A stretch of 64,000 nucleotides of DNA, taken from sequence record PQ249397, one strand, 5' to 3'. Positions within the stretch are counted from its first letter, which is position 1. Each line of letters begins with the position of its first letter. The notes under the pieces were generated by a model. That model did not search any database and had not been told where the DNA came from. It worked only from the letters and a program-made list of their open reading frames with translations. Shown in pieces: positions 1,882-2,813 of the stretch. The position numbers and the translations under genes were made by a program. The stretch comes from Escherichia phage Pu-Krd-SF3.

Positions 1882-2145
1882 ATGAAATTTAAATTCTTTT
1901 ATGTTAAACATAAAATCACAGGTGAATTTGTTCATGTACAATATTCTGAAATTGACGATGCAACATCATTTATTTCATTGGGATTGTCTAAATATGAATC
2001 AGACCAACCATATCTTACTGATAAATTGCAACAAGAGCGTTTGTTGAATGGTGATTTAAACAATTCTTGGGAAGTTCTTATTTACGATGATTTAAAGAAA
2101 GCTATTAAAGAAAATAATCTTGAAATCATTGAGATTGAACTATGA
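1882..2145 (+). CDS. hypothetical protein, 87 aa
   Basis: ORF with RBS gaggaacaaaa-ATG downstream of an early promoter. Confidence 0.5.
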   Translation: MKFKFFYVKHKITGEFVHVQYSEIDDATSFISLGLSKYESDQPYLTDKLQQERLLNGDLNNSWEVLIYDDLKKAIKENNLEIIEIEL

Positions 2146-2228
2146 GTTCATTATGGTGGTGTTTCGTTTGGTTAATTAGTATTCCATTAATTTGTTTAAC
2201 ATTTACTTTTGTGATGAGGTTATTATGA
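2142..2228 (+). CDS. small hydrophobic peptide, 28 aa (MSSLWWCFVWLISIPLICLTFTFVMRLL)
   Basis: ATGA overlap with upstream stop; single predicted TM helix; below the ORF-track length cutoff. Confidence 0.25.
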   Translation: MSSLWWCFVWLISIPLICLTFTFVMRLL

Positions 2229-2323
2229 AAATTTTGAATTCTGTACTTATTGCTTGTGCGTGGTGGGTTGCGCAAGTTTCAGCAGTAGTGATTGGTATTC
2301 ACATTTATTACGAATATTTTTAA
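2225..2323 (+). CDS. small hydrophobic peptide, 32 aa
   Basis: ATGA overlap with preceding small ORF; hydrophobic core VLIACAWWVAQVSAVVIGI. Confidence 0.25.
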   Translation: MKILNSVLIACAWWVAQVSAVVIGIHIYYEYF

Positions 2324-2329
2324 AAAGTT

Positions 2330-2359
2330 GTTTACAAGACTGTTCCTCTGTGGTATTAT
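2330..2359 (+). promoter_or_regulatory. T4-type early promoter
   Basis: GTTTAC 2330-2335, 18-nt spacer, TATTAT 2354-2359; downstream TATCAACTAC leader and GGAGGA RBS. Confidence 0.55.
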
Positions 2360-2387
2360 TACCTTATCAACTACGGAGGAACAGAAA

Positions 2388-2501
2388 ATGAAAAAGATTG
2401 TTAAAGCTATATGGAATGTAGTTATAATACTAGTAGTTTTGAGTATATTCCCAATCGTTTTAATGATTGATGTATTAAACGCTTACTTTGGATTTATGTG
2501 A
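2388..2501 (+). CDS. small membrane protein, 37 aa
   Basis: ATG 8 nt after GGAGGA RBS; highly hydrophobic (VVIILVVLSIFPIVLMI); internal start chosen within ORF 2292..2501. Confidence 0.4.
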   Translation: MKKIVKAIWNVVIILVVLSIFPIVLMIDVLNAYFGFM

Positions 2502-2508
2502 GGAAAAT

Positions 2509-2706
2509 ATGAAGCGTAAACGTAGTGCTTTTACATTTATTGAATGGTTTTTCGATAATATTTTTCCGGCTTTATTCATTTTCATGCTGATTTTTGCCTT
2601 GGGTTCAGTTGTGGTTGGAATCTATTTGATGGCAGTTGTCGGAATGGATATTCACCAAAATGGTTTGAAATCTGTGGTTGAAACAATTTGGAATGGCGTA
2701 AAATGA
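2509..2706 (+). CDS. small membrane protein, 65 aa
   Basis: GAGGAAAAT-ATG; basic N-terminus then long hydrophobic segment (FPALFIFMLIFALGSVVVGIYLMAVVG). Confidence 0.45.
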   Translation: MKRKRSAFTFIEWFFDNIFPALFIFMLIFALGSVVVGIYLMAVVGMDIHQNGLKSVVETIWNGVK

Positions 2707-2813
2707 TGAATTTGCTGAGCGGTTGGTTTTATATTCTTATGTTTTACATTGGCGCAAATTTCCCATATTGGATGGGATGGTCAACAACTGCATTTGGATT
2801 TTATACTCCTTGA
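2703..2813 (+). CDS. small hydrophobic peptide, 36 aa
   Basis: ATGA overlap with the upstream ORF; aromatic-rich hydrophobic sequence. Confidence 0.3.
   Translation: MMNLLSGWFYILMFYIGANFPYWMGWSTTAFGFYTP

Follow-up and report, generated by a model that had tools for sequence, protein, structure and literature searches.

The window analysed here, a 64,000-nt stretch of DNA from Escherichia phage Pu-Krd-SF3 (PQ249397), contains five small open reading frames (ORFs) on its plus strand at 2142–2228, 2225–2323, 2388–2501, 2509–2706 and 2703–2813, encoding 28, 32, 37, 65 and 36 amino acids (aa) respectively, as the original prediction had placed them; coordinates refer to the window unless another record is named. 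In T4 their orthologues are ndd.6, ndd.5, ndd.4, ndd.3 plus ndd.2a (which together constitute one 65-aa gene) and ndd.2. By the evidence of frame, codon position and amino-acid conservation, they are genuine genes under purifying selection and not chance ORFs. They were interpreted, with good though incomplete confidence, as immediate-early accessory genes in the variable denB–ndd region, encoding inner-membrane micro-proteins that act separately, are dispensable in the laboratory and confer a host-dependent benefit. The original prediction had presented them as unrecognised and as a single translationally coupled chain. Neither description survived: the genes are already known, since T4 annotations have carried them for decades and family entries exist for them, and they are divided between two units by a promoter and a hairpin.

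Bases 1800–3100 were 100% identical, at the same coordinates, to PQ759884.1 (Escherichia phage Pu-Krd-SF4) and matched approximately 498 T4-like (Tequatrovirus) records. The gene order here is rIIB, a denB.1 homologue, denB, an 87-aa ORF, the small ORFs, ndd.1, ndd, stp, ac, 52.1 and 52. T4 has the same layout, in which the small ORFs are named ndd.6, ndd.5, ndd.4, ndd.3, ndd.2a and ndd.2; the five ORFs of the window likewise occupy the denB–ndd interval and lie on the strand that is transcribed early. The T4 genes (NC_000866 T4p275–T4p270; T4T HM137666) agreed with those of the window in their order between denB and ndd and in length, and local tblastn showed that the T4 peptides were 92–100% identical to the five. 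Full-length PHROG matches were obtained for every ORF (E = 3e-17 to 3e-30), each to a different family: 8851 (ndd.6), 5011 (ndd.5), 3098 (ndd.4), 2401 (65-aa gene) and 4135 (ndd.2). Two also had Pfam families, PF23906 (DUF7248) for the 65-aa protein and PF26889 (Phage_T4_Y16N) for homologues of ndd.4, while a search of NCBIfam with the five returned zero matches. The expectation that standard gene calling would miss three of these ORFs applied to ndd.6 alone, which was left out of PQ759884.1 and was also unannotated in most relatives' records inspected; the other four are annotated in PQ759884.1.

The individual gene models were fixed by comparison. The ndd.6 orthologue (2142–2228; PHROG match E = 3e-17) was 96% identical to T4 Ndd.6 and has one predicted transmembrane helix, as has the ndd.5 orthologue (2225–2323; E = 4e-26), the start of which overlaps ndd.6. 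The ndd.4 orthologue (2388–2501) has a Lys-rich N-terminus followed by one transmembrane helix; the correct product is 37 aa, whereas the Ndd.4 annotated in T4 is 42 aa because its start is placed at an ATG created by a T4-specific substitution. The 65-aa gene (2509–2706) matched PF23906 with 71.9 bits against a cut-off of 27 (E = 4e-20), and its product has an N-terminal KRKR, an amphipathic helix and a single transmembrane helix, and its C-terminal tail is conserved. The T4 reference (NC_000866 166432–166628) is one base short just after the start of this gene (ATGAA-CGT); the gene is therefore split there and annotated as two ORFs, ndd.3 being a 26-aa product of an artefactual frame and ndd.2a a 40-aa product from an internal Met. 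The gene was intact in 15 of 17 other Tequatrovirus sequences compared and in re-sequenced T4; T4T annotates it as a single 198-nt 'ndd.3'. In the T4 annotation used for HIDEN-SEQ, ndd.3 is 82 nt long, which implies an extra base there too. Finally, ndd.2 can be read as 36 aa from 2703, but this ATG is replaced by ATA in about a third of relatives and the conserved start is therefore the second ATG, giving 35 aa (2706–2813). Its product contains 33% aromatic and zero charged residues, and a conserved FY(I/V)G-N-PYW motif.

Evidence for coding was sought in 17 Tequatrovirus loci aligned with the window (18 genomes). Summed over the five ORFs, variable sites at the first, second and third codon positions numbered 15, 10 and 51, and there was no comparable third-position bias in the other two reading frames of this alignment. 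The pattern was clear for ndd.5 (1/1/9), the 65-aa ORF (3/5/23) and ndd.2 (5/3/14), for which the ratio of nonsynonymous to synonymous change was 0.09–0.19; the adjacent ndd.1 gave 3/7/21. Taken alone, neither ndd.6 (3/0/4) nor ndd.4 (3/1/1) showed any third-position bias, and the coding evidence for these two is therefore cross-genus amino-acid conservation only. The reading frames were intact in nearly all of the 18 genomes. Together with the distribution described below, this upheld the view that these are real small membrane-protein genes, with the conservation in related phages that had been named as a check on it.

Across 50,697 phage records, ndd.6 was encoded in 494, ndd.5 in 493, ndd.4 in 595, the 65-aa protein in 494 (of which 490 had at least 95% amino-acid identity) and ndd.2 in 518, and the five co-occurred in essentially every Tequatrovirus. 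The records with ndd.4 included other genera, at 55–61% identity, and those with ndd.2 included Klebsiella phages, at 46–49%. In RB69 and JS10, an ndd.6-like ORF followed the homologue of the 87-aa ORF with an ATGA overlap (alignment z = 11.7 and 8.5 respectively); that of RB69 is unannotated. JS10, Enterobacter phage MY742 and the metagenomic T4-like contig L023 each had a homologue of ndd.4. Peptides resembling ndd.2 and carrying its FY(I/V)G-N-PYW motif occurred in MY742 (z = 7.6), L023 (z = 9.2) and Klebsiella phages, while the DUF7248 protein of L023 was 55% identical to the 65-aa protein and kept its FIEWFFDNIFP and ENGLKSV-ET-WNG segments. Each phage thus held a different set: RB69 ndd.6 only, JS10 ndd.6 and ndd.4, MY742 ndd.4 and ndd.2, and L023 ndd.4, ndd.2 and the DUF7248 gene. 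Beyond these phages the families were scarce. The 65-aa query retrieved only 8 proteins from a search of 5.8 billion sequences and only 5 loci from IMG/VR, the ndd.4 query retrieved only 6 representative clusters among 1.84 billion proteins, and no bacterial relatives of either were seen in the two protein searches. The same contig, L023, has a 68-aa ORF (154–360 of the contig) upstream of denB, in the position of T4's denB.1, that belongs to the Pfam family PF21825 'Sequestin'.

All five products are predicted to be membrane-embedded. One transmembrane helix in each had been proposed, and on the Kyte-Doolittle scale (19-residue window, threshold 1.6) this stood for ndd.6, ndd.5, ndd.4 and the 65-aa protein, with maxima of 2.18–3.05, but not for ndd.2, with a maximum of only 1.17. 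On the Wimley-White octanol scale, however, all five were favourable (-6.7 to -17.9 kcal/mol, ndd.2 being -14.6), while two soluble neighbours scored +6.5 and +7.1; the prediction for ndd.2 therefore concerns this second scale only. An AlphaFold2 model of the 65-aa protein (predicted local distance difference test score 80) consisted of a short helix at residues 4–17 and one long helix at 19–64. According to the positive-inside rule, ndd.5, ndd.4 and the 65-aa protein, whose N-termini are rich in Lys and Arg, are predicted to keep those ends in the cytoplasm. Database labels of 'outer membrane' and 'periplasmic' are old predictions, implausible for helices of 28–37 residues, and no experimental support for them was found in the literature or the records.

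The hydrophobicity also bears on whether these could be chance ORFs in AT/T-rich DNA that annotation inertia has preserved. ORFs of 28–37 codons are indeed common in DNA of 36% GC, and the plus strand of the window has 133 ATG-initiated ORFs of 25–70 aa. However, a Kyte-Doolittle maximum of at least 2.0 was reached by only 1.8% of small ORFs when the sequence was shuffled and by 3.6% of those on the minus strand, so that four adjacent ORFs of this kind on one strand are not attributable to chance. When the conserved frames, selection by codon position and cross-genus homologues are added, a chance origin is effectively refuted.

The 87-aa ORF (1882–2145, plus strand), a soluble member of the RB69ORF270c family (PHROG 2390) and the putative upstream partner for coupling, overlaps the start of ndd.6 by ATGA, and ndd.6 overlaps ndd.5 in the same way. 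A 64-nt intergenic spacer (2324–2387) with its own early promoter then separates ndd.5 from ndd.4. Only 7 nt separate ndd.4 from the 65-aa gene, whose Shine-Dalgarno sequence runs over the ndd.4 stop codon (TGAGGaaaatATG at 2499–2511); the stop of the 65-aa gene in turn overlaps the ATG of ndd.2 at 2703 by ATGA, or the conserved start at 2706 by 1 nt (TGATG/TAATG). The last gene, ndd.1 (2822–3037, plus strand), which encodes an acidic, soluble protein of 71 aa, begins 8 nt past the ndd.2 stop, with a ribosome-binding site overlapping that stop. The claim that most of the five are linked by ATGA was overstated, since this was so at two of the four internal junctions (2225 and 2703), the others being the 7-nt gap and the 64-nt spacer. 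Nonetheless, except across that spacer (2323/2388), every stop lay close enough to the next start to fit translational coupling, in line with the tight juxtaposition originally described.

A comparison with T4 and T2 is informative in this respect. Where the window has the complete 87-aa ORF, both of these phages have lost it and kept an 8-codon remnant, MKI(A/V)EIEL and a stop, assembled from the start and the last codons of the ORF. This remnant ends on the ndd.6 ATG and so preserves the ATGA overlap; ending there is its only obvious role, which argues that coupling matters. The mini-ORF is suggestive, at the level of sequence, of a dependence of downstream translation on upstream translation. 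The 87-aa ORF was itself 100% identical to that of PhiZZ6 but only 52–55% identical to most relatives, and is therefore a mosaic segment; as the adjoining ndd.6 was 96–100% identical, a recombination boundary is placed at their overlap. In PST (1220–1398 of that record), intact ndd.6 and ndd.5, 96–97% identical, were found to be encoded and unannotated. Consequently, what was published as an 'exchange of ndd.4/.5 for ORF268/269' between these phages, T4 and PST, seems rather to be the insertion of two ORFs ahead of ndd.6.

The early promoter pattern GTTTAC-N15-TGNTAYWAT had 11 matches in the window, all on the plus strand, where 0.26 were expected. Two of these serve the region. P1 (1825–1854, plus strand; GTTTAC N15 TGgTACTAT), found by pattern match and consensus scan, precedes the 87-aa ORF, ndd.6 and ndd.5; P2 (2330–2359, plus strand; GTTTAC N15 TGgTATTAT) precedes ndd.4, the 65-aa ORF, ndd.2 and ndd.1, and was the best sigma-70 match between 1200 and 4000 (10 of 12 positions, with an extended -10 TG). 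Since P1 and P2 occupy separate sites, the five ORFs fall into two units, of two and three genes. P2 lies within a 15-bp stem-loop (2340–2384, plus strand) in which 2340–2354 pairs with 2370–2384 (-23.4 kcal/mol, z = -4.5). Its 5' arm falls within the promoter spacer and its loop includes the -10 box; the 3' arm contains the ribosome-binding site (GGAGG) of ndd.4, while a transcript beginning at the P2 start is predicted to be unstructured (0 kcal/mol). P1 has no stable stem-loop (-6 kcal/mol, z = 0.2). Among 11 distinct Tequatrovirus sequences, 98.8% of cells in the P2 hairpin were paired, and JS10, MY742 and L023 have comparable hairpins, with other arm sequences, upstream of their ndd.4 genes. 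Elsewhere in the window, T4-type early promoters were found in strong hairpins (z = -3 to -6) at 23927–23985, 34086–34144, 36762–36821, 39782–39839 and 47021–47082. At four of these, the whole ribosome-binding site is paired to sequence that precedes the predicted start of transcription, indicating that the arrangement at ndd.4 is a general feature of these cassettes. Beyond ndd.1 there is a GC-rich 10-bp hairpin without a T-run (3042–3065, plus strand; -18.6 kcal/mol, z = -3.4); the terminator scan made no call here, and the hairpin probably marks the 3' end of the P2 transcript or stabilises it.

These features correspond to the promoter-early stem-loop (PeSL) elements of T4-like phages described by Arbiol et al. 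2010 and Comeau et al. 2014 (PMC2839356, PMC4122927), who showed attenuator activity and used the denB–ndd locus as an example of cassette exchange (their Fig. 6A). PeSL cassettes and the P2 region have in common an AT-rich lead, a TTTACW-N17-TAYWAT promoter, a stem-loop over the -10 region, a ribosome-binding site and an ATG; like PeSL cassettes, those of the window are repeated across variable regions and adjoin differences in gene content, and the cassette contents differ among T4, T2 and PST. The promoter pattern was matched exactly at both 1825–1854 and 2330–2359, and the stem-loop was present at P2 but not P1. A difference is that the 3' arm at P2 is the ribosome-binding site itself, which the PeSL papers do not discuss, their tests being of transcription attenuation. 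From this geometry, RNA started at P2 would have a free ndd.4 site, while in RNA reading through from P1 the site would be sequestered, and we infer that the stem blocks translation of ndd.4 on such read-through RNA.

The division into two units also affects the possibility that the five peptides form one hetero-oligomeric membrane complex, its stoichiometry set by overlapping translation. Such a complex would accord with the tight packing, the overlaps or short gaps at most junctions and the presence of all five together in essentially every Tequatrovirus. Against this, there is a promoter for each of two units, the second of which a hairpin insulates; outside the genus the families differ in distribution; and there are natural genomes without single members. 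A common complex was considered distinctly unlikely, and the varied combinations in which the families occur in other genera make it probable that each peptide works on its own.

At the nucleotide level ndd.4 was exceptional. It had zero synonymous variants among the 18 genomes, where approximately 11 were expected from the rates of its neighbours (Poisson probability of about 2e-5), and nucleotide diversity was low from about 2370 to about 2580. Genus-wide, its 114 nt had at least 95% DNA identity in 493 of 494 records, while an equal-length piece of the 65-aa gene reached this level in only 45 of the 218 records detectable by megablast. RNA structure in the ndd.4 mRNA was not supported as the cause, for the folding energy was no lower than in controls resampled for synonymous codons (z = 0.17), and the T4 replication origin oriA was rejected because a review places it near soc. 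The simplest account would be a recent sweep or gene conversion beside the promoter cassette, and this is offered as a proposal. An apparent likeness between ndd.4 and KwaA, a membrane protein of the Kiwa defence system, was rejected as a chance match: PADLOC reported it (E = 0.0085, 13.8 bits) for the window's own sequence only, and it was absent from the ndd.4 orthologues of T4 (which differs by three residues), JS10, MY742 and L023 even at E ≤ 10, as well as from nine shuffled or reversed ndd.4 controls.

The conservation of ndd.4 could be taken to mean that the ORFs act in cis only, as leader or spacer frames that tune the expression of ndd.1 and ndd or the stability of their mRNA, and that the peptides have no function. 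The coupled junctions would fit this, as would the failure to see any of the peptides by mass spectrometry. However, in three of the genes the amino acids are under purifying selection while third positions are free to vary, motifs are kept across genera at 45–60% identity despite nucleotide divergence, and ndd has its own ribosome-binding site downstream of a hairpin. A purely cis-acting role is thus very improbable.

Published work on T4 supplied evidence of expression and dispensability. All six orthologous T4 ORFs were classed as early by RNA-seq (PMC9697503), and T4 Ndd.1 was detected early by mass spectrometry in the same study. Knock-down of each of the six by CRISPRi-ART was scored 'Not Fit', meaning no fitness effect (PMC11879866). 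HIDEN-SEQ transposon mutagenesis found all six to be non-essential, with insertions at nearly every site, and its hits with RexAB, RnlAB, CBASS, DarTG1/2 and minimal medium were other genes, none of these six. A viable genome-reduced T4 clone, T4_583L (MZ375356), has a 340-nt deletion that runs from the last part of ndd.5 through the whole of ndd.4 and takes out the greater part of the 65-aa gene; the clone probably comes from the CiPGr genome-reduction study (PMC9825161). The literature search found no paper assigning a function to the five genes; the UniProt accessions led only to the omics paper, and a search on 'ndd.2a' found nothing.

Several observations weigh against the interpretation of the five as accessory membrane proteins under selection, or against details of it. 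None of the six T4 proteins was detected by liquid chromatography–mass spectrometry; Ndd.4 (P39249, 5 kDa) was named in that study to illustrate proteins whose small size prevents detection (PMC9697503). No phenotype for the five genes appeared in any condition tested in the T4 screens, so that their proposed role is drawn by analogy. Natural variants without intact copies occur: in one T2 record (LC348380) codon 33 of the 65-aa gene is a stop, Sf25 has a 130-nt deletion that fuses ndd.4 in frame to the tail of the 65-aa protein (the ndd.2a part), a 12-nt deletion in SP21535 takes out the ndd.2 start, and one metagenomic contig has a 2-nt insertion at the end of ndd.6. To these are added the missing third-position bias of ndd.6 and ndd.4 and the low Kyte-Doolittle value of ndd.2. 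With respect to the P2 hairpin, five pairs had changed on one side only (G-C/G-U) and zero pairs were compensatory; moreover, the authors of the PeSL papers interpret these elements as transcription attenuators, not translational blocks (PMC2839356, PMC4122927).

A role in superinfection exclusion or lysis timing, comparable to Imm and Sp or to holins and antiholins in T4, was suggested for such peptides. Imm and Sp of T4 are early, envelope-located and non-essential. The five genes are early and predicted to be in the membrane, as is Imm, and the neighbours rIIB, ac, stp and ndd concern host interaction. However, Imm and Sp, at 83 and 97 aa, exceed the five in length and fall in other families, and searches of PHROGs, Pfam and NCBIfam revealed no family-level relationship of the five to Imm, Sp, holins or antiholins. 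Immediate-early promoters and a denB–ndd location far from the lysis genes fit lysis timing poorly, and there was no plaque or fitness phenotype in the T4 screens, though exclusion would not show there. Participation in exclusion or lysis was judged unlikely.

Other small genes in the vicinity resemble the five in kind. Within 3 kb there are three further tiny hydrophobic genes, ac (3639–3797), 52.1 (3790–3930) and motA.1 (5260–5409), which would bring the number of predicted membrane micro-proteins to eight in less than 4 kb of the early region. Ac (51–52 aa), gp52.1 (46 aa) and MotA.1 (49 aa) share a 5-kb stretch of the window with the five and resemble them in size, hydrophobicity and membership of early units, but have no sequence similarity to them; among these three, a genetic phenotype (acridine sensitivity) is given by the T4 annotation for Ac only. 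Two genes present in the sequence were unannotated in PQ759884.1, namely stp (3551–3631, 26 aa), the product of which is identical to T4 Stp, and 52.1 (46 aa), which has one substitution relative to T4. Existing labels in this region were sometimes misleading: in several records, including PST and PYPS2T, small ndd.x ORFs are called 'naphthalene 1,2-dioxygenase', probably a propagated mis-expansion of the abbreviation 'Ndd', and one ndd.5 ORF is labelled 'exopolysaccharide biosynthesis protein' in database records.

The preferred reading, of five separate accessory micro-proteins, would operate as follows. Host sigma-70 RNA polymerase would transcribe the genes from the two T4-type early promoters. 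In the P1 unit, the 87-aa ORF, ndd.6 and ndd.5 would be translated in succession, each start overlapping the previous stop by ATGA, such that ribosomes probably reinitiate. P2, enclosed in the stem-loop that has the ndd.4 ribosome-binding site as its 3' arm, would initiate the second unit; after ndd.4, translation would continue to the 65-aa gene, ndd.2 and ndd.1 through the 7-nt, overlapping and 8-nt junctions. The products would insert as tiny single-pass peptides in the inner membrane, where each may modulate some host inner-membrane or envelope component. There are bacterial precedents in AcrZ, MgrB and SgrT, single-pass peptides of 30–50 aa, each of which works through binding to a membrane protein larger than itself; no homology to the five was detected, and the likeness is by analogy only. 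Near-universal conservation combined with laboratory dispensability suggests a benefit dependent on host or condition. It is conceivable, but on balance doubtful, that at least one peptide is a transmembrane-helix inhibitor of a host inner-membrane protein and that, separately, ndd.4 has a second, nucleotide-level function. The target could be, for example, an immunity effector embedded in the membrane, or a sensor of envelope stress, that E. coli K-12 and B either lack or keep silent.

As a discovery the five ORFs carry little weight, and their residual value is practical. For annotation, comparison indicates that ndd.6, stp and 52.1 should be added to PQ759884.1, and that the models of ndd.4 (37 aa), ndd.3 plus ndd.2a (one 65-aa gene) and ndd.2 (start at the second ATG) should be corrected as above. 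For the biology of these phages, it is a puzzle that five micro-proteins are under purifying selection in approximately 494 genomes and yet have been scored as dispensable in every laboratory screen. This combination of selection and dispensability makes them reasonable subjects for host-range or anti-defence work in natural hosts.

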